Shown here: one piece after another, positions 5,867 through 61,714 of the stretch | How the letters are laid out: each line of letters starts with the position of its first letter | How positions within the stretch are numbered: position 1 is the first letter of the stretch | Assembly: GCF_024298765.1 (NCBI RefSeq) | Contig: NZ_CP101211.1 | DNA length: 64,000 nt | Source: Escherichia coli | GTDB lineage: Bacteria; Pseudomonadota; Gammaproteobacteria; Enterobacterales; Enterobacteriaceae | Direction: 5' to 3' (one strand) | Position numbers and translations under genes: made by a program | The notes under the pieces: model-generated | The model's database searches: none | What the model was told of the DNA's origin: nothing | Seen by the model: the letters and a program-made list of their open reading frames with translations, nothing else

Positions 5867-6686
5867 GGCACTGTTGCAAAGTTAGCGATGAGGCAGCCTT
5901 TTGTCTTATTCAAAGGCCTTACATTTCAAAAACTCTGCTTACCAGGCGCATTTCGCCCAGGGGATCACCATAATAAAATGCTGAGGCCTGGCCTTTGCGT
6001 AGTGCACGCATCACCTCAATACCTTTGATGGTGGCGTAAGCCGTCTTCATGGATTTAAATCCCAGCGTGGCGCCGATTATCCGTTTCAGTTTGCCATGAT
6101 CGCATTCAATCACGTTGTTCCGGTACTTAATCTGTCGGTGTTCAACGTCAGACGGGCACCGGCCTTCGCGTTTGAGCAGAGCAAGCGCGCGACCATAGGC
6201 GGGCGCTTTATCCGTGTTGATGAATCGCGGGATCTGCCACTTCTTCACGTTGTTGAGGATTTTACCCAGAAACCGGTATGCAGCTTTGCTGTTACGACGG
6301 GAGGAGAGATAAAAATCGACAGTGCGGCCCCGGCTGTCGACGGCCCGGTACAGATACGCCCAGCGGCCATTGACCTTCACGTAGGTTTCATCCATGTGCC
6401 ACGGGCAAAGATCGGAAGGGTTACGCCAGTACCAGCGCAGCCGTTTTTCCATTTCAGGCGCATAACGCTGAACCCAGCGGTAAATCGTGGAGTGATCGAC
6501 ATTCACTCCGCGTTCAGCCAGCATCTCCTGCAGCTCACGGTAACTGATGCCGTATTTGCAGTACCAGCGTACGGCCCACAGAATGATGTCACGCTGAAAA
6601 TGCCGGCCTTTGAATGGGTTCATGTGCAGCTCCATCAGCAAAAGGGGATGATAAGTTTATCACCACCGACTATTTGCAACAGTGCC
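5867..6686 (-). mobile_element. IS26 (820 bp, complete)
   Basis: 14-bp terminal repeats at both ends, with tnpA on the minus strand. Confidence 0.95.
5919..6641 (-). CDS. tnpA: IS26 transposase
   Basis: Identical translation to the other IS26 tnpA copies. Confidence 0.95.
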   Translation of the reverse strand: MLMELHMNPFKGRHFQRDIILWAVRWYCKYGISYRELQEMLAERGVNVDHSTIYRWVQRYAPEMEKRLRWYWRNPSDLCPWHMDETYVKVNGRWAYLYRAVDSRGRTVDFYLSSRRNSKAAYRFLGKILNNVKKWQIPRFINTDKAPAYGRALALLKREGRCPSDVEHRQIKYRNNVIECDHGKLKRIIGATLGFKSMKTAYATIKGIEVMRALRKGQASAFYYGDPLGEMRLVSRVFEM

Positions 6687-6754
6687 CGCTTAAAAATAAT
6701 AAAAGCAGACTTGACCTGATAGTTTGGCTGTGAGCAATTATGTGCTTAGTGCAT

Positions 6755-6825
6755 CTAACTTTGTTTTAGGGCGACTGCCCTGCTGCGTAACATCGTTGCT
6801 GCTCCATAACATCAAACATCGACCC
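6755..6825 (-). other. attI1 recombination site of a class 1 integron, apparently with no cassette
   Basis: 5'-conserved segment ...GTCGCCCTAAAACAAAGTTAGAT followed on the cassette strand by what I recall as the start of the qacE cassette, cut by IS26 at 6686; boundaries approximate. Confidence 0.6.
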
Positions 6826-6894
6826 ACGGCGTAACGCGCTTGCTGCTTGGATGCCCGAGGCATAGACTGTACAAAAAAACAGTCATAACAAGCC

Positions 6895-7576
6895 ATGAAA
6901 ACCGCCACTGCGCCGTTACCACCGCTGCGTTCGGTCAAGGTTCTGGACCAGTTGCGTGAGCGCATACGCTACTTGCATTACAGTTTACGAACCGAACAGG
7001 CTTATGTCCACTGGGTTCGTGCCTTCATCCGTTTCCACGGTGTGCGTCACCCGGCAACCTTGGGCAGCAGCGAAGTCGAGGCATTTCTGTCCTGGCTGGC
7101 GAACGAGCGCAAGGTTTCGGTCTCCACGCATCGTCAGGCATTGGCGGCCTTGCTGTTCTTCTACGGCAAGGTGCTGTGCACGGATCTGCCCTGGCTTCAG
7201 GAGATCGGAAGACCTCGGCCGTCGCGGCGCTTGCCGGTGGTGCTGACCCCGGATGAAGTGGTTCGCATCCTCGGTTTTCTGGAAGGCGAGCATCGTTTGT
7301 TCGCCCAGCTTCTGTATGGAACGGGCATGCGGATCAGTGAGGGTTTGCAACTGCGGGTCAAGGATCTGGATTTCGATCACGGCACGATCATCGTGCGGGA
7401 GGGCAAGGGCTCCAAGGATCGGGCCTTGATGTTACCCGAGAGCTTGGCACCCAGCCTGCGCGAGCAGCTGTCGCGTGCACGGGCATGGTGGCTGAAGGAC
7501 CAGGCCGAGGGCCGCAGCGGCGTTGCGCTTCCCGACGCCCTTGAGCGGAAGTATCCGCGCGCCGGGCATTCCTGGC
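6895..7576 (+). pseudogene. intI1: Class 1 integrase gene truncated at its 3' end by IS26 (about 227 codons kept)
   Basis: Translation [44 protein letters not shown]... matches IntI1; reading frame runs into the IS26 repeat at 7577. Confidence 0.9.
6982..7010 (-). promoter_or_regulatory. Integron cassette promoter Pc, hybrid variant (-35 TGGACA, -10 TAAACT, 17-bp spacer)
   Basis: On the cassette strand: TGGACAtaagcctgttcggttcgTAAACT inside intI1. Confidence 0.7.
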
Positions 7577-55080: not shown

Positions 55081-56265
55081 TCATGACTGTCCCTTGTTCA
55101 TCTTATCAGCATGCTTACGCAGGTACTCTTTCAGGTCAGCATGAGCGTTGATGATATCGTTCATTTCATCATTGGTCAGAACAAGCGTGTAAGTATCAGT
55201 ACTGACAGATTCACCTTCTTTAAGCTTGGCTTCTTCAGCAATACGTTCAAAAATCGGGATCGCGGTGTCTGCAATGACGGTCACAGTCTTTTTGTTCAGA
55301 ACGCTGGACATGGAAGGTGCTTTACCTGCCGGGTTCTGTTTAGGAGCGCTGTCCTTTGGAGCTGGAGCCGGTTCCTGTACCGGTGGCGTATCCAGCGTCT
55401 CCGTATTGCTTTCATCGTTCAGTTGATCCGGTACCGGGGTGTTATCGGTAGTATCATCTGCCGGTTGCTCAGCACCGATGTTTTCCGGAGTCTGCGGATC
55501 TGCCATGCGCTCTTCTACCTTGGCAGCTTTGACGAATTTCAGCGTGTTTTTCGTCGCCTTGCCATAGATGGAGATCGCTTTGTTGATGTTATCTACCGCA
55601 TCCTCACCGCTGTACATATACTCGTCCAGTGCAACGTACATGCTCACCTGATCGCTCACAAGCATGGTCTGTAGTTCAGAAGGCAGGTCCAGTACGCGAA
55701 CCATCTGGCGAAGATGCTGCTCTGATTTACCACGTTTTTTTGCCAGTTCCGCAAAGGTCTTAGGCTCTTCTTTATCTTCAACCAGACGCTTAATTGAAAG
55801 CGCTTCAGCTACGACAGACAGCGCCAGGTTGGAGTTGCCGGTCAGGGTGAAGAGTTCTGCTTTTGAAGCGCTACCGCGAAACTCTTCGCAGCGAATACGA
55901 GTAATGCGTTCACGCCCTTCTGCTTCCAGCTGGCGGTTTGCAATAGCGATGGAACGGATACGGCAAGCCCCCTGACGCAGTACAGGTACGCCATTAACCA
56001 TCTGAACAACGATAGGCGTCACGCTGAACGGGTCTTCCATGTAGGCATCGGCCAGGCTGTTCAGGTGTTCCACAACGTGAGGCATTGAATAGTAGAGCTC
56101 GCCCATACCGGCCGTGCGGGTGTTAAAGCCTTCCTGCTCTACAACAACCGAAGGGTCAATGATAAGGCCGTTGCCTTTACGGGCACCGTTACCAGTGCGT
56201 TCCAGGTAACCACGAAGGCTGATTTCGTTGCTGTTGTTTTTTACTTCAGTTTCGATTGCGGACAT
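55081..56265 (-). CDS. ParB-like nuclease-domain protein with an acidic, Pro-rich linker
   Basis: N-terminal region ...FNTR...IVVQMVNGVPVLRQGACRIRSIAIA resembles the ParB/Srx fold (GxRR-type motif); 394 aa. Confidence 0.5.
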   Translation of the reverse strand: MSAIETEVKNNSNEISLRGYLERTGNGARKGNGLIIDPSVVVEQEGFNTRTAGMGELYYSMPHVVEHLNSLADAYMEDPFSVTPIVVQMVNGVPVLRQGACRIRSIAIANRQLEAEGRERITRIRCEEFRGSASKAELFTLTGNSNLALSVVAEALSIKRLVEDKEEPKTFAELAKKRGKSEQHLRQMVRVLDLPSELQTMLVSDQVSMYVALDEYMYSGEDAVDNINKAISIYGKATKNTLKFVKAAKVEERMADPQTPENIGAEQPADDTTDNTPVPDQLNDESNTETLDTPPVQEPAPAPKDSAPKQNPAGKAPSMSSVLNKKTVTVIADTAIPIFERIAEEAKLKEGESVSTDTYTLVLTNDEMNDIINAHADLKEYLRKHADKMNKGQS

Positions 56266-56493: not shown

Positions 56494-56680
56494 CCGGTTG
56501 TCTGGGCCAGTGATGGGAGAGTGGCAGGACAGGAATGGCTAAACCGGTGCGGGTCTCTTGTAAGTCGCAGGGGATTCAGGAGATATAGAGGTAAACTGGT
56601 ACGTTCAGTTTTTGGATTGAGCCGGGCTTTTGGCCCGGGCTTAAGGAAGCAGAAATTTGAACGAACTGGCAGGTAATGCT

Positions 56681-56857
56681 TTATGCCGCCGACAGCTGGC
56701 CGTCAGTGCTTTGCTGTTCTGGTTTGACAGTTGGGGGATAACCGGCAGTTAGCCGCTGGCATTCCGCATCACAGAAAGCCCTGAGGTTGCTGAAGACGGA
56801 CTCCATGAAATCAGCATGAGCATACGAGTCTACAGGACGTGTCTTGTTATCTTTCAT
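56681..56857 (-). CDS. Small hypothetical protein (58 aa)
   Basis: GAGGAG ribosome-binding site 6 nt before the ATG at 56857. Confidence 0.3.
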   Translation of the reverse strand: MKDNKTRPVDSYAHADFMESVFSNLRAFCDAECQRLTAGYPPTVKPEQQSTDGQLSAA

Positions 56858-57366
56858 CTTGTTCTCCTCAATCATTATTAAAACCAGCGGATTTAGTTTC
56901 TGGCGCTCCATCTGCTGACCGGCTTTCCCAGAGAGCAGCGATGTGTCGGGTTCTTTTTCTCATTTTATCGTTTTCATCGGGCCCATCCGGGCGTATAAGA
57001 GACCGATTTGGCATGTTTAGGAAACGTACTGGCGTAATTAAAAGCTGAGGTTGGATTTGGAATAAAAGGATGCTTTTCCCGTTTGTCGGGTCTTTCGCCA
57101 CCGCTGCACGATGATTCTGTCAGGCATTCTGCGCCCTCCCAGGCTGCACATCTGGAAACAAGCGTTGGGATGTTCCCTTCCCCTGCTCACCGTAGAAAGA
57201 TCGGCAAGTCCCGACGGTCGTTCCGTACGAGCCGGGTCCAAATAATGAATAAATAAAACGCCGCTTCAATTGTATTGACAATAGAAGTCAGGAGGATCAT
57301 AGTGTCATTCATGGTGCGGCTTTCGCACCACCGCCCCGGCGGTACCGGGCAGAACTGGAGTACCTC

Positions 57367-58311
57367 ATGAAACTTTCCCGTCAGACGACTTCTGATACTT
57401 CTGTTGATGGCCGTTCACGCGCATATGCCTGGGGCCGTGTCCATTATTTCATTATCGAACATGCACCAATGGCTGAGCTGGTCGCTATTGACGAGCTGCT
57501 GGAAAAAGCTGGCTGGAGCAATGACGGCTGTCCGAACTATGAGAAAGATGACGAGTTTGGTAATGCTGGTTACAGCTGTGGTTACTGGATCGATATTGAC
57601 AGCGTGGGAAGCTTCAAGGCTGACTACAAACGTCTTAAGGGGGAGATTAGTGCGCATATCGCCTCAAAGGCGGCAGAGGTGGAGATCCGCGTACTGGACT
57701 CGATGTCCGACAAAGAATGTAAAGATGTTGCCTCGGTGGCATCTACTGTTCGCCGTGACTTACGTACGCAGTCCGAATCGCTTCATTCACTGCGTACAAT
57801 CGTAACGGTTGATCATTACAATCCCTATGTGACCACCAGCCGCCCGCTGAGCATTTCCGCCTGGACACTTATCCACGACTGTCTGAAAACAGGCACCATC
57901 AATGACGTCTGTTCACGGTTGAGTTCATTAATCCTGCACTCTGAAGCCGCGATTGCCCGTTGTAAGGGAAGCTCCGACTACTCTTCGGAACACGCTCAGC
58001 TATCGTTTTTTGCTGGTAACGACTATGTCACCAGACGCACCCTTGTTGATGCAGCTCACGAAGAGGCTCTGCGAATGAACCGCCGCTTTGATGAACGCAT
58101 TGCAATGAACGCGGATTCTGATGCCAGAAGGCTCCAGTGCGAATTCAACCTTAGCAACCATGTCGTACAGCGTAGGACCGTTGAATCTGCTCATATCCAG
58201 GCACTCAATGAAGACGTCACCCGTTCACAGGCGGAACCACGCTGCCCTGGAAAGCTTCTTCTGAATATGACCAGTCATGAGGAAGTGCGGGACTCACTGA
58301 GCGCCTGTTAG
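57367..58311 (+). CDS. Hypothetical protein
   Basis: 314 aa. Confidence 0.45.
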   Translation: MKLSRQTTSDTSVDGRSRAYAWGRVHYFIIEHAPMAELVAIDELLEKAGWSNDGCPNYEKDDEFGNAGYSCGYWIDIDSVGSFKADYKRLKGEISAHIASKAAEVEIRVLDSMSDKECKDVASVASTVRRDLRTQSESLHSLRTIVTVDHYNPYVTTSRPLSISAWTLIHDCLKTGTINDVCSRLSSLILHSEAAIARCKGSSDYSSEHAQLSFFAGNDYVTRRTLVDAAHEEALRMNRRFDERIAMNADSDARRLQCEFNLSNHVVQRRTVESAHIQALNEDVTRSQAEPRCPGKLLLNMTSHEEVRDSLSAC

Positions 58312-58407
58312 TCCAGCGACACCCCCTGCGGCTCTACTACCGGGCCGCAGTCTGCTCCTGCCCAGATGGTGCCAGTGGTGTAATGAATTTGTTTAATAAG
58401 GCTAAGT

Positions 58408-59010
58408 ATGATGAATAAAGAACAACTAATCGACAAACTGGAACGCGTGGTATGTGGTCAGTACTCCTACGAAATGCAGGAGCTTGCGTATTCGGCCCTC
58501 TGCTGCATTAAAGGCACCCCGGACGACTGCGCTAAGTTCCCTGTTACGCGTCCGCTGCCTGACACCTTAGTGGACGTATGGGACGAAATCGGGCAATACC
58601 TTGGCACAGGCAAAGCCATTGAAACTCGCAGTTGCGGCGTTTCGCTTCTGCTTCATGGACACTGCTACGATTCAAATCATGTGCTTTACTGGCGCAATGC
58701 TGGCGCACTTCCAGCAGCTTGCGATACGCCACTGGCTGGTGGGTCTCGCAAACTGTTCACCTGCTCAGCCTGTGGAGTGGACGGTCTGGATGAACCACCT
58801 GAAACCAGTTGCCACTGCTGCACAGAGGGGGCCCACTGGGTTGAGAGCAGGCTCTTCACCTCCGGGCAGGCAGACCCTGAAGAATTTAGACCCGTGGCGG
58901 TCGTGAAAGAGTGTGCAGGCTCAACGCCGGATGATCGGCTCATCTGGAGTGTGATTGAACAGCTCAACGGCGAACTGGCGGAAGGCGATAAACTATTTAA
59001 GCGACGCTGA
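58408..59010 (+). CDS. Cys-rich hypothetical protein
   Basis: 17 Cys in 200 aa, including CSACG and SCHCC clusters. Confidence 0.45.
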   Translation: MMNKEQLIDKLERVVCGQYSYEMQELAYSALCCIKGTPDDCAKFPVTRPLPDTLVDVWDEIGQYLGTGKAIETRSCGVSLLLHGHCYDSNHVLYWRNAGALPAACDTPLAGGSRKLFTCSACGVDGLDEPPETSCHCCTEGAHWVESRLFTSGQADPEEFRPVAVVKECAGSTPDDRLIWSVIEQLNGELAEGDKLFKRR

Positions 59011-59063
59011 CAGATCACGGCAGCATTTATAACAGACGAACTCCAGAATAATTTAAAGCAACC

Positions 59064-59420
59064 ATGAACATGAAAAAGCCCAAAGCTGCATTACAGAATG
59101 CCATGAAAGAAGATGTGCCAGCTGTGACACAGATTCAGATGCGATCTACGGTTTCCAGAAAGGTTCGCTATGTAAAACAGGCAAATCGAGAGGGTCTGAA
59201 ATTATCTGAGTGGATGTCGCGGCATCTCGACGCTGTCTGTGATACCGCAGATGAGATTCATAAAGGCAAACGCTCAACTCCGGTTGCGCCTGGGAAGATT
59301 CCCCCAGAGGTATACCAGGTGATATACGATCAGTGCGGCGGGTTCGTGGAGTGTGATGCTAATGCCCAGGTTATCTGGGAAGCCTGCCGTAATGCCATTC
59401 TTAACGGAGACAAAGGGTAA
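59064..59420 (+). CDS. Hypothetical protein
   Basis: 118 aa. Confidence 0.4.
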   Translation: MNMKKPKAALQNAMKEDVPAVTQIQMRSTVSRKVRYVKQANREGLKLSEWMSRHLDAVCDTADEIHKGKRSTPVAPGKIPPEVYQVIYDQCGGFVECDANAQVIWEACRNAILNGDKG

Positions 59421-59450
59421 ACGGCAGGTATCGCCTGTCATTTTACCCTT

Positions 59451-59669
59451 GTGAGGACAATACTGATGAACCATGAGAGCCGAACTGTATACCTGAACAC
59501 GGCCATTGAGGCCCTGCTGAAAGCTGAGGCGGCTCTGAACGATCTGGCATTAGCCTATGAGCTTAAACCTGATGAAAAGGCAAGCGCATGCCATCCCAGA
59601 ACCGGCACACTTTCCACTGCGTCCCAGGTAAAAAAACTCCGCCGTGTCCTTGAGAAGCAGAAGGTATGA
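59451..59669 (+). CDS. Small hypothetical protein
   Basis: 72 aa. Confidence 0.35.
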   Translation: MRTILMNHESRTVYLNTAIEALLKAEAALNDLALAYELKPDEKASACHPRTGTLSTASQVKKLRRVLEKQKV

Positions 59670-59986
59670 AGGGCTGCATCAGCCAGGCCCGGATATAAAT
59701 ACATGCTCTGCCAGGTGAGTACCACTGCCCGGTAGCCGAATGATAAGTTTTGATTTCACGGTTGCAATTTCTCCCTCTGGCATCACTGCTCCACGATGCA
59801 CCCCGATCAGCTTAGCGTCTGAAAATGAAGATGCACCGGACCTGCATGAAGCGGAACGGTGCCCAGCTGAGTGTTTGTGGGCACAATGAACCGCAATTTC
59901 ATGATGGGAATGAAAGATGGCTGGTGGCCCGCTGATATGAACGCTTACCCTGCATAACGTTACTAACCACAATCTTTTCACTAAAA

Positions 59987-60021
59987 GAAAAAAGGGTTCC
60001 TCCGCTTTAGAGGAACCCTTT
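59987..60021. terminator. Bidirectional terminator hairpin
   Basis: A-run, GGGTTCCTC / GAGGAACCC stem, then T-run. Confidence 0.55.
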
Positions 60022-60060
60022 CAAAAGGTGCCGATGGCATACTAATCCACACCCTGAAAA

Positions 60061-60079
60061 GAGGGGGGTTGCCCCCCTC
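60061..60079 (-). terminator. Hairpin directly after the hok stop codon
   Basis: GAGGGGGG-tt-gCCCCCCTC with T-rich flank on the minus strand. Confidence 0.55.
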
Positions 60080-60087
60080 TTTGTCAG

Positions 60088-60246
60088 CTACTTACCGGAT
60101 TCGTAGGCCAGGATAGCAAATACCTCCCTTGTTCCGTCTTTCATCCGCAACTCGCAAAGCGAGTTTCGTGTGAGCCAGGTGAATATCAACAGCGTTAAAC
60201 AAACTATTAATATGCACAAAACAATGGGTTGGTTCGGCATTTTCAT
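60088..60246 (-). CDS. hok: Hok-family type I toxin (52 aa)
   Basis: [52 protein letters not shown] is close to plasmid Hok/FlmA. Confidence 0.85.
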
Positions 60247-60344
60247 GGCCTTCTTCTCCTTGCATTTAAGCAGGCAAGAGGCTACGCTGTGTGTGACTAG
60301 CATACAGGGGCCTCGGGTTGTACTGACCCCAGAAAGTTGGACAG

Positions 60345-61196
60345 TTAAACACGAGGCATATAGGTCTGATTCCGATATTCAATTGGAGTCAGACCTTTTA
60401 ATTTCAGGCTAATTCTTCTGCTGTTGTAGTATTCAATATATTCCGTAACAGCATCCTTCAGCTCGCTTATATTACTGAACTCATCAAGATAAAAACACTC
60501 CGACTTTAAGGTTCCAAAGAAACACTCCACCACAGCATTATCCAGACAATTGCCTTTTCTGGACATGCTTTGTTTAATACCATGTTCTTTAAGGATATTT
60601 TGATATCTTCTCATACGATACTGCCATCCCTGGTCAGAGTGCAGAACAGGATGCTCGTGAGGATTAAGCTTTTTGAATGCCTGATCGAGCATATTCTCGA
60701 CCATGTTCATCACTGGTCTTTCCGAAAGGCTGTAAGAAATAACTTCGTTGTTGAAGAGATCTATTACTGGAGACAAATACAGCTTGCGCCCATTGACTGC
60801 AAATTCAGTAACATCGGTAACCCACTTCTCGTTTGGCCGCGTAGCCTTGAAATCTCTTTGGAGAACATTGGGGGCGGTTTGCCCTACCTCTCCTCTGTAA
60901 GAGCGGTATCGCTTGACCTTAATCGCTGCCTTCAGTGAGAGGATTCCCATCAGGCGCTGAACAGCTTTATGGTTAATCTGTTTCCCTTCTCGATGAAGAG
61001 ACAGCGTTACCCTACGGTATCCGTATCGGCCTCTATTCTCATGATAAATCTCACCAATACGCTTTTTAACGTCCGCATACTTGTCAGGCTTGCTGAGAGC
61101 CTTTAGATGGTAATAAAACGTACTGCGCGGTATCTCCGCAGCCCTGAGAAGCTCATCAAGAGGATAAAACTGCCTTAGCTCGTTGAGTACTTTCAC
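60345..61196 (-). CDS. insK: IS150 OrfB (InsK, integrase core)
   Basis: [33 protein letters not shown]..., DDE integrase core; overlaps orfA by 4 nt in the -1 frame. Confidence 0.9.
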
Positions 61197-61714
61197 TTTT
61201 TCGTGGGATGAGCTAAGGCTTTCAGCTTTTTTAGATACACAAGCCGCGTTTCAAGAAATCGAACTTGCCTTTCAAGATCCTCAATGCGTCGGTCTTTTGA
61301 CAGCTCCAATGCTGATGCCGCTTTTTCTGGATCAACTGATATTGCAATGTTTCTTTTGGTGCCAATCTTGAGCGCGCGTAAACCAGCTTCTCCGCGCTCT
61401 TCATAAACCTTCAGCCACCTGGCTACAGAACCACTACCAGCAAGCATAAAGTGAGCAGCAGCCTGATTAAGGGACATGTGCTGCTCGATCACCGCTTTCA
61501 CGACCTTAATACGCAACTCAGGATCAGCACTAACACCTTTAGGTTTGGGAATTAAACCTTTTTCTCCATGTTTTTCATAGAGGGCAACCCATGTCCTGAC
61601 CTGGGTTCGGGGGACACCAAAACGTGCCGAGATGATCCTGTAACCATCATCAGTAGTGAAGTAGTGATTCACGACTTCAAGGCGCTTTTCAAAAGGGTAT
61701 TTTGGCTTTGACAT
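61193..61714 (-). CDS. insJ: IS150 OrfA (InsJ)
   Basis: MSKPKYPFEKRLEVVNHYFTTDDGYRIISARFGVPRTQVRTW... Confidence 0.9.
   Translation of the reverse strand: MSKPKYPFEKRLEVVNHYFTTDDGYRIISARFGVPRTQVRTWVALYEKHGEKGLIPKPKGVSADPELRIKVVKAVIEQHMSLNQAAAHFMLAGSGSVARWLKVYEERGEAGLRALKIGTKRNIAISVDPEKAASALELSKDRRIEDLERQVRFLETRLVYLKKLKALAHPTKK

Follow-up and report, generated by a model that had tools for sequence, protein, structure and literature searches.

What do four small genes of no assigned function do on the backbone of an IncHI2 plasmid, and what is the folded leader that stands in front of them? The genes, here called A to D, lie with their leader on the plus strand at positions 57250 to 59669 of a 64,000-nucleotide stretch of Escherichia coli DNA (contig NZ_CP101211.1, assembly GCF_024298765.1; hereafter the window). 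We found that the leader is one copy of a widespread cassette, made up of a promoter, a variable 5' hairpin, the sequence CCGCCCCGGCGGnnCCGGGCA and a Shine-Dalgarno motif, and that gene C begins, by profile comparison, with an RHH (ribbon-helix-helix) domain. The same promoter-leader cassette and the same N-terminal RHH domain occur at the locus of the anti-CRISPR gene acrIF25 (AcrIF25, PDB 8jdh/8jdi). The reading that we favour, and to which we give about an even chance, is that the cluster is a self-regulated accessory operon of anti-defence type carried on the IncHI backbone. The sequence of the cluster has long been known and is annotated as hypothetical; what is new here is its assignment to a class of operons to which the acrIF25 locus also belongs, together with a conserved leader cassette that is absent from Rfam.

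A promoter-leader cassette and its copies

Two adjacent palindromes had been described ahead of gene A by an earlier, sequence-only reading of the window, and both are real (GGTGCG-gcttt-CGCACC and ACCGCC-cc-GGCGGT; Table 1). Since a sigma70-type promoter lies just upstream, with transcription predicted to start near 57310, the palindromes fall within the transcribed leader, which is about 57 nt long. Its core of 36 nt, which holds the two hairpins, folded more stably than 199 of 200 shuffles (z = -2.56), in keeping with the earlier description of the leader as structured. The second palindrome belongs to a GC-rich element (the GC element) with two overlapping helices, which were compared in an alignment of six sequences. 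The ACCGCC/GGCGGT helix was 86% paired with two compensated pairs and the CCCGG/CCGGG helix 97% paired with one compensated pair; covariation for both helices is suggestive, not decisive. Comparison with Rfam 15 gave no family for the leader: over 56500-60500, cmscan (E <= 1) matched nothing but sok.

Within the window the 12-mer of the GC element has one perfect match (0.21 expected with at most one mismatch), and there is no further copy of either the cassette or the GC element. A candidate second leader at 2660-2675 was rejected, being without a Shine-Dalgarno motif and ATG behind it. An ops/RfaH-like or boxB/N-like reading of GGCGGTACCGGG was dropped because positions expected to be critical vary between copies (TA, CA, AA, CT).

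Outside the window the GC element recurs ahead of unrelated genes in the IncHI1 plasmid R27, in two further loci (L006, an IncHI3-like Citrobacter plasmid, and L007; related loci are labelled in this way throughout) and in about 16 metagenome loci. The latter came from a scan of metagenome contigs for the exact pattern CCGCCCCGGCGG-N2-3-CCGGGCA, which occurred in at least 120 places. Most of these were chance matches in GC-rich coding DNA, and the 104 chance loci served as a control set. The remaining loci, about 16, have the layout seen in the window, namely a sigma70 promoter, 'caTGG', a variable hairpin, the GC element, a Shine-Dalgarno motif and the start of a small gene, mostly of unknown function. 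The spacing from GC element to Shine-Dalgarno motif is short and fairly constant in all cassette copies. The 30 nt upstream of the pattern, which lay outside what was searched for, had a mean folding z of -1.67 at the cassette loci (Stouffer -5.8, n = 12) and of -0.03 at the chance loci (n = 101; Mann-Whitney p = 8e-5). In other cassette copies hairpin 1 has changed in sequence while its stem is kept, with frequent G·U pairs; this was tested by folding each sequence separately, as MAFFT leaves the stems out of register.

The cassette is strongly associated with RHH genes. Using a local hidden Markov model of the RHH domain over the 120 loci, we detected an RHH gene downstream of nine of the 16 cassettes and of none of the 104 chance matches, an association of about 1e-9 (hypergeometric, calculated by hand). 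All nine genes are on the same strand as the cassette and 0.2-2 kb downstream of it. At L102 the order is cassette, a 72-aa gene and then a protein 100% identical to AcrIF25. The fusion protein at L116 has only the N-terminal RHH domain in common with AcrIF25, so the RHH domain is a portable module, joined to different C-terminal effector domains and always located behind this cassette.

The promoter part of the cassette also recurs. TTGACA-N17 promoters stand at equal spacing from the hairpins in L007, L013, L014 and L026, and the IncHI3-like plasmid keeps the same sigma70 promoter and leader ahead of a different first gene; there, a symmetric double change preserves palindrome 2 (AACGCC..GGCGTT). 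The 3' half of the leader precedes a DUF5417 gene in the IncHI3-like plasmid and in R27, and an HNH gene in L007. The AT-rich inverted repeat over the -35 hexamer, a candidate repressor operator, has no second exact copy in the window and is found again in the IncHI3-like copy L006a and in L026. In L013 the arms of the promoter repeat are lengthened to 9 bp (TTTAATTGT-gttg-ACAATTAAA), and L008, L016, L017 and the Pseudomonas-type cassettes carry analogous but different repeats at or near the promoter. Cassette promoters have perfect inverted repeats whose sequence varies from copy to copy. Relatives of the window show both its -35 repeat (57269-82) and its leader repeats (57313-43) either conserved or compensated.

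One related contig, the IncHI2-like Ga0209281_1000173 (151 kb), carries two cassettes, L026 and L027. The second (L026 11540-12098 and L027) precedes a 174-aa protein (MKPMLKKDFF…) whose homologues are encoded within plus-strand clusters in L006, L013 and L014. Some IncHI plasmids may therefore have a small regulon under the control of the cassette. The 118-nt GC-rich cassette of one metagenome locus had almost no matches in PLSDB.

Four mosaic proteins

The four plus-strand open reading frames first proposed are genuine genes under purifying selection, given ratios of nonsynonymous to synonymous substitution (dN/dS) of 0.12-0.32 and diverged homologues on other plasmids at 40-65% identity. 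The earlier statement that none of them is recognisable was half right: no function can be assigned, but all four have relatives at the level of domains. From these relatives, A-D read as mosaics of phage and plasmid accessory modules.

Gene C encodes an N-terminal RHH domain followed by a small conserved domain. A profile built from five sequences of the C family matched the N-terminal domain of AcrIF25 (8jdh residues 4-40) at E = 4.7e-5, RHH_10 was found in four of the five members, and a NikA-like match was obtained at E = 2.7e-4. The expected succession of beta-strand, helix, G-x-S/T turn and helix was consistent over the five members and agrees with a solved protein that contains an RHH domain, the single sequences lying below Pfam gathering thresholds; NCBIfam gave only a sub-threshold LmbU match over the same region. 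For C as a whole, dN/dS was 0.29. The C-terminal 50 residues are conserved in the few homologues of C, have no likeness to known proteins and are unrelated to the Cas7f-binding domain of AcrIF25. The RHH domain of AcrIF25 is reportedly dispensable for anti-CRISPR activity and has been proposed to be a built-in regulator; another RHH protein, Aca14, was shown experimentally to repress acr-type operons via promoter inverted repeats, and Aca2 binds two hairpins in the 5' untranslated region (bioRxiv 10.64898/2026.07.27.740549). A 'NikA-like' gene in L007 belongs to the same RHH family and so gives no pointer to the leading region.

An exhaustive HMMER search with A gave 56 representative relatives, which have about 200 N-terminal residues in common and then diverge into C-terminal repeat arrays. 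DUF5417 (PF17438) matched residues 51-91 of A with 24.7 bits, above the gathering cut-off of 23.9, and the N-terminus matched phrog_1254 (E = 7e-8). This part has a homologue in T4, the 'uncharacterized 9.5 kDa protein in frd-Gp32 region' (about 90 aa aligned at 35-40% identity), which is present in 727 T-even phages; A differs in its additional AHxEAL repeats. The repeat motif of the family is roughly FF(A/G)GNDYxxRRxLxxAAHxEALxMN, for which neither Pfam nor PHROG holds a model. Protein A has two AHxxAL motifs, and other members (P0128, P0133, P0135-P0144) have 2 to about 10 copies per protein. The AHxEAL repeat also occurs in proteins without DUF5417; in a lambdoid prophage (L018 5001-6233) a gene with this repeat comes first after cI in the early-left operon, upstream of kilR, erf and ssb. 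The dN/dS of A against its homologues was 0.32. A profile search of genome contigs with the A alignment gave a single locus only, and the literature found by search mentions neither DUF5417 nor the six RefSeq accessions.

Genes of the A family are found elsewhere on small plasmids and phage-plasmids. An RHH gene lies within 3 kb of an A-family gene at six independent loci besides the window (L006, L007, L008, L013, L014, L016), as well as in the near-identical IncHI2 lineage L005, and directly adjoins it in L006, L007, L008 and L016. Two genes from one A homologue is a Tad2-like gene (anti-Thoeris family). In a Cronobacter phage (93.8-kb circular record, L012 3900-4000) and a Citrobacter contig (L015), AT-rich palindromes (GAGTAAATATTTACTC, twice) precede the A-family gene in place of the GC cassette, so the family has come under a different regulator there.

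Protein B is cysteine-rich, with 13 cysteines instead of the 17 counted earlier. It is built as a mosaic of N-terminal helices, a segment with a DUF551-like motif (residues 41-95) and a CxxC…CxC knuckle (residues 109-155). The knuckle segment (SRKLFTCSACG…CHCC…GAHWVE) shares about 60% identity with a module of proteins from Enterobacter and E. coli. These knuckle homologues are prophage proteins without export signals, and many have DUF551 elsewhere in their sequence; the order of modules in B differs from that in lambdoid Ea22/DUF551 proteins. For residues 41-95 the matches are to C-terminal ends of hypothetical proteins that other MOBH plasmids encode, and Cys41, 76 and 86 are replaced in these relatives. 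The resemblance of this segment to DUF551 (PF04448) was by eye only, with no Pfam match at E <= 1. DUF551 is also found in an Ea22 variant of the lambdoid exo-xis region, and a mosaic build-up from portable domains has been described for Ea22 variants (PMC10834534). The phage proteins with DUF5417 and DUF551 have no known molecular function, so the resemblance transfers no mechanism to A or B.

It had been suggested that B binds metal or is a redox client of the plasmid's DsbA/DsbC pair. Only C119, C122, C135 and C137 are conserved among its cysteines, the other nine of the 13 not being so. Across 35 sequences C118, C121, C134 and C136 together with H135/H142 (numbering of the 199-aa protein) were at least 90% conserved, in the pattern CxxC-x12-CxC(C)…H. 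AlphaFold2 (AF2) predicted this knuckle confidently as a three-stranded module (pLDDT 84-88); the model was poor outside residues 1-34 and 111-150. A Foldseek search with the model had no significant match (the best was zinc rubredoxin, E = 0.44), and a profile of B relatives against PDB gave only noise. A structural zinc in the four-cysteine knuckle is plausible from the conserved pattern and the model, and to this extent the metal-binding proposal is partly supported. The redox-client proposal is not supported. No 19-residue Kyte-Doolittle mean in A-D exceeded 1.01, and over the first 35 aa the 10-residue hydropathy peaked at 1.51, values from a crude hydropathy test and not from a dedicated signal-peptide predictor. 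With no signal peptide, N-terminal hydrophobic region or membrane segment, A-D are predicted to be cytoplasmic and therefore beyond the reach of periplasmic DsbA/DsbC. A specific co-occurrence with the Dsb genes is likewise not supported: the DsbA-family and DsbC-like genes adjoin the IncHI transfer genes, and R27, compared at the cluster locus, is syntenic but without B.

Two cysteine-containing proteins were noted in the IncHI3-like plasmid, a stand-alone 45-aa CPEC…CHC protein like the knuckle of B (L006 6464-6601) and a 138-aa protein with a CDCEEPCEC motif (6054-6470), so small Cys-knuckle modules recur in such clusters.

Gene D is the most widely kept member, being present in IncHI1, IncHI2 and IncHI3-like plasmids, with a dN/dS of 0.12-0.14 against its homologues. 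Its R27 homologue is 68% identical and is the sole intact gene of the cluster there.

The IncHI setting and the ends of the cluster

The window is IncHI2 plasmid backbone. About 990 plasmid records in PLSDB match positions 57000-59900 at 95-100% identity, with Escherichia, Salmonella and Enterobacter as the dominant hosts, and the inspected records have IncHI2 typing, a MOBH relaxase and MPF-F. In these records A-D are annotated only as 'hypothetical' or 'DUF5417 domain-containing'; one example IncHI2 record carries tet(A), dfrA12, aadA2 and sul1. In pSTM6-275, used as the reference record, the last gene of the Tra1 operon (mobI, MobH relaxase, TraD, DUF4400, S49 peptidase, NERD nuclease) is followed by the cluster after about 5 kb. 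Between the two are 11 small minus-strand genes, the last encoding a ParB-like protein of 394 aa; beyond the cluster are hok and then minus-strand DUF3085, DUF957, HNH and PAPS-reductase-like genes. The ParB-like gene and the small reading frame upstream of it diverge from the cluster across a 455-bp intergenic region, and the pair is syntenic in IncHI1, IncHI2 and IncHI3-like plasmids. A 93-aa hypothetical backbone gene in L001 (19219-19500) carries the RGI label 'Brucella suis mprF, 100% identity' in its PLSDB annotation, which looks like an annotation artefact.

The locus differs between IncHI groups. In the IncHI3-like plasmid (L006) this place is taken by a plus-strand cluster of 11 genes. 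It includes homologues of C and D (just over 60% identical) and a 110-aa DUF5417-only protein; where B would stand it encodes an unrelated protein, and an additional RHH gene, standing alone, comes directly upstream of the one for DUF5417. What R27 (IncHI1, L009) retains is D, the leader's 3' half and 18 codons from the start of A; B is absent and the surrounding synteny is kept; by this comparison the locus is a clear deletion derivative. The leader half and the 18 codons there (6690-6790) run into an out-of-context fusion, and a minus-strand coding sequence that RefSeq places across the A remnant (6536-6916, 126-aa hypothetical) is probably spurious.

A bidirectional terminator had been placed behind gene D. 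The strong hairpin over the stop codon of C stands between C and D and not after the cluster, and no terminator was found at or just after 59669 or from there to 59990. The closest hairpin that has A and T runs on its flanks lies 320 nt past D and is shared with the convergent hok/sok genes. Homology with a second IncHI2 lineage stops at 59672; the segment 59672-59990 is absent from that lineage, holds a 100-aa minus-strand reading frame (59679-59981) and may be an insertion remnant. An IS150-like insertion sequence (IS) overlaps sok and the regulatory region upstream with its end, and may have disrupted this copy of hok/sok.

Table 1 Features of the A-D cluster and its surroundings in the window.
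Feature	Position	Strand	Details
ParB-like protein	55081-56265	-	394 aa; HTH_ParB, phrog_1033; acidic, proline-rich tail
Small open reading frame	56681-56911	-	upstream of ParB-like gene
AT-rich inverted repeat	57269-57282	+	ATTGT-attg-ACAAT; overlaps -35 hexamer; candidate repressor operator
Sigma70-type promoter	57275-57303	+	TTGACA 57275-57280, N17, CATAGT 57298-57303; 10/12 consensus matches
Leader hairpin 1	57313-57329	+	GGUGCG-gcuuu-CGCACC; predicted mRNA 5' end
GC element	57330-57351	+	contains CCGCCCCGGCGGTACCGGGCA (57331-57351); conserved; two overlapping helices
Helix ACCGCC-cc-GGCGGT	57330-57343	+	inside GC element
Helix CCCGG/CCGGG	57335-57349	+	inside GC element, overlaps ACCGCC/GGCGGT
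Shine-Dalgarno GGAG	57357-57360	+	6 nt before gene A ATG
Gene A	57367-58311	+	314 aa; DUF5417 N-terminal domain, conserved helical middle, two C-terminal AHxEALxxN motifs
Gene B	58408-59010	+	200 aa, 13 Cys; RefSeq start is second Met, 199 aa
Gene C	59064-59420	+	118 aa (RefSeq 116 aa from 59070); N-terminal RHH and small conserved C-terminal domain
RHH domain of C	~59121-59249	+	residues ~18-60; profile matches
Intercistronic hairpin	59415-59448	+	over C stop codon; -18.2 kcal/mol, z = -4.54, 0/200 shuffles as stable
Gene D	59451-59669	+	72 aa from GTG (RefSeq 67 aa, ATG 59466); helical; phrog_19934, E = 9e-11
Hairpin with flanking A and T runs	59990-60022	both	z = -3.3 on both strands
GGGGGG-ttgc-CCCCCC	60063-60076		follows hairpin 59990-60022
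hok-type toxin reading frame	60088-60243	-
sok match	60244-60398	-	Rfam, sub-threshold: 34 bits vs gathering score 59
IS150-like IS3 element	orfA 61193-61714, orfB 60345-61196		directly flanks hok/sok

What the operon may do

The window holds, in order, the cassette, A, B, the fusion of an RHH domain to another domain in C, and D; the acrIF25 locus has the same cassette and an RHH fusion. A-D form a candidate anti-defence set because the promoter, the folded leader and the RHH domain are common to that locus. Operons of anti-CRISPR (acr) and anti-CRISPR-associated (aca) genes are alike in having a strong promoter, inverted repeats, small genes of unknown function and a DNA-binding module within the operon. 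If the cluster is such an operon, the RHH domain of C would bind the cassette and so repress the operon that encodes it, in the manner of Aca proteins; expression would surge when the plasmid enters a new cell and then be shut off. Both hairpin 1 and the GC element would act on the mRNA, through stability or protection of its 5' end or through access to the Shine-Dalgarno motif. A, B, D and the C-terminal domain of C would be effectors on host proteins, most likely those of defence or of other establishment barriers, the knuckle of B perhaps holding a structural zinc. The Tad2-like neighbour, the AHxEAL gene after cI and the DUF551 in the Ea22 variant fit an anti-defence or early-gene setting.

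Several observations weigh against this reading. PADLOC, Pfam, NCBIfam and PDB sequence searches gave no functional assignment for A-D; PADLOC found no match to a defence system in the cluster, and PDB sequence searches with A, B and D gave nothing or noise. Compared with acr-aca operons, the cluster has an in-operon DNA-binding regulator and the regulatory context of a validated locus but no effector homology: none of its proteins is homologous to the effector part of a known anti-defence protein, C matches the regulatory domain of AcrIF25 only, and regulation by C is a prediction. The link to one validated Acr locus is guilt by association. The cluster also sits on an IncHI conjugative plasmid of Enterobacteriaceae, unlike the acrIF25 locus. 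An RHH gene was not detected at seven of the 16 cassette loci, nor in the fetched flank of R27, which has the GC element. The fold of the whole 73-nt leader was unremarkable (z = -0.97), and the covariation on six sequences was weak, with 15 and 69 of 500 shuffles equalling the observed values. The operon faces away from the side on which oriT and the relaxase are inferred to lie and runs counter to its minus-strand neighbours, so that expression from the incoming single strand, of the classical leading-region type, is not evident; literature on MOBH oriT and leading regions gives no direction of IncHI transfer. The leading-region anti-defence islands of Samuel et al. (Nature 2024, PMC11541004) are similar in their arrays of small genes beside ParB-like, hok, HNH, DUF3085/DUF957 and PAPS-reductase-like genes near the relaxase, and in the Tad2-like neighbour of an A homologue. 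They differ from the cluster, which is on the strand opposite its neighbours, directed away from the inferred oriT and without an evident Frpo-type single-strand promoter. Unrelated genes behind a recurrent cassette are not without parallel. The CUP repeats in the leading region of the IncN plasmid pKM101 are promoter cassettes repeated before unrelated establishment and anti-restriction genes, under plasmid repressors; the likeness drawn here is one of concept, and the cassette is single-copy in this window.

Whether the GC palindromes act in RNA or in DNA bears on how the operon would be controlled. It is possible, if on the doubtful side, that they are DNA operators, an RHH dimer of C sitting on the invariant CCGCCCCGGCGG (about +20 to +33 for a start near 57310) as a roadblock to RNA polymerase. 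Inverted repeats are typical RHH targets, the motif is strongly associated with the RHH gene, and the perfect 12-bp palindrome is nearly invariant across very different elements, and the beta-strand motif of the RHH domain (I-H/Q-x-R) is conserved as well; the change in L006a retains the DNA symmetry. Not all copies behave in this way, however: L013 has the arms CCGCC/GGCGG with a spacer of 5 nt instead of 2 nt, and L014 has lost the palindrome while keeping the CCCGG/CCGGG helix through a change from G-C to A-U. The G·U pairs of hairpin 1 are asymmetric in DNA, L007 and L006b carry the element inside operons right before the Shine-Dalgarno motif with no recognisable promoter, and the promoter has an AT-rich inverted repeat of its own that could serve as operator. 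A broader proposal, which we think rather unlikely, would have promoter repeat, variable 5' hairpin, CCGCCCCGGCGGnnCCGGGCA, Shine-Dalgarno motif and RHH-X fusions constitute an undescribed regulatory system that marks anti-defence operons, with A, B, D and the C-terminal domain of C as new effectors and the RHH domain acting on both DNA and RNA, like Aca2. Such a system would extend from GC-rich acrIF25 elements to enterobacterial IncHI plasmids.

The remaining alternatives concern the proteins. RHH genes directly beside A-family genes (L006, L007, L008, L016), promoter palindromes typical of type II operons, the hok/sok genes nearby (60088-60398) and the ParE-like, CcdAB or HigB genes near A-family homologues would suit a toxin-antitoxin or addiction module, in which the RHH protein is antitoxin and autorepressor, A (or B or D) is the toxin and the plasmid is stabilised alongside hok/sok. 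We regard this as quite improbable: the stand-alone RHH proteins (55-82 aa) lack a C-terminal toxin-binding extension, A-family proteins of 110-628 aa with variable repeat arrays are unlike known toxins, and neither Pfam nor PADLOC gave a toxin family. In IncHI2 gene B stands between A and the RHH gene, which is itself a fusion with another domain; of A, the IncHI3-like plasmid has no more than the first 110 aa; and the same RHH module occurs in AcrIF25, which is not an antitoxin. It also seems improbable that these are housekeeping regulators of IncHI transfer, partition or entry exclusion, with C acting on other backbone genes. The position about 5 kb past the Tra1 relaxase and coupling-protein operon and divergent from the ParB-like gene, the conservation of D across the three IncHI groups and the RHH fold common to NikA-type relaxosome proteins speak for such a role; yet the content of 11, four or one gene by IncHI group is contrary to a core transfer function, the window including Tra1 holds no second operator-like repeat or GC element, and relatives occur in phage early regions and unrelated small plasmids. 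A role of B in handling metal, or in the periplasm as a redox client of DsbA/DsbC, we consider very improbable indeed. The 13 cysteines in 200 aa, the Dsb genes on the same plasmid and a knuckle that could bind metal speak for it, but the absence of export signals in B and its knuckle homologues, the nine unconserved cysteines, the place of the Dsb genes beside the transfer genes, the lack of B in R27 and the non-significant rubredoxin match all argue against it.

In Salmonella, E. coli and Enterobacter, multidrug resistance has major carriers in the IncHI2 plasmids, and how they establish themselves in new hosts is poorly known. If the genes are neutral or toxin-antitoxin-like, the cluster is ordinary accessory plasmid DNA. 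The link of A-D to the acrIF25 cassette and its RHH module turns them into concrete candidates for establishment or anti-defence genes, and the cassette could be used as a marker for new counter-defence genes in plasmids, integrative and conjugative elements and phages, as aca genes were. Were the proposed regulatory system to prove real, A, B, D and the C-terminal domain of C would be new effectors of a major family of resistance plasmids, and the cassette would be a beacon for finding others.

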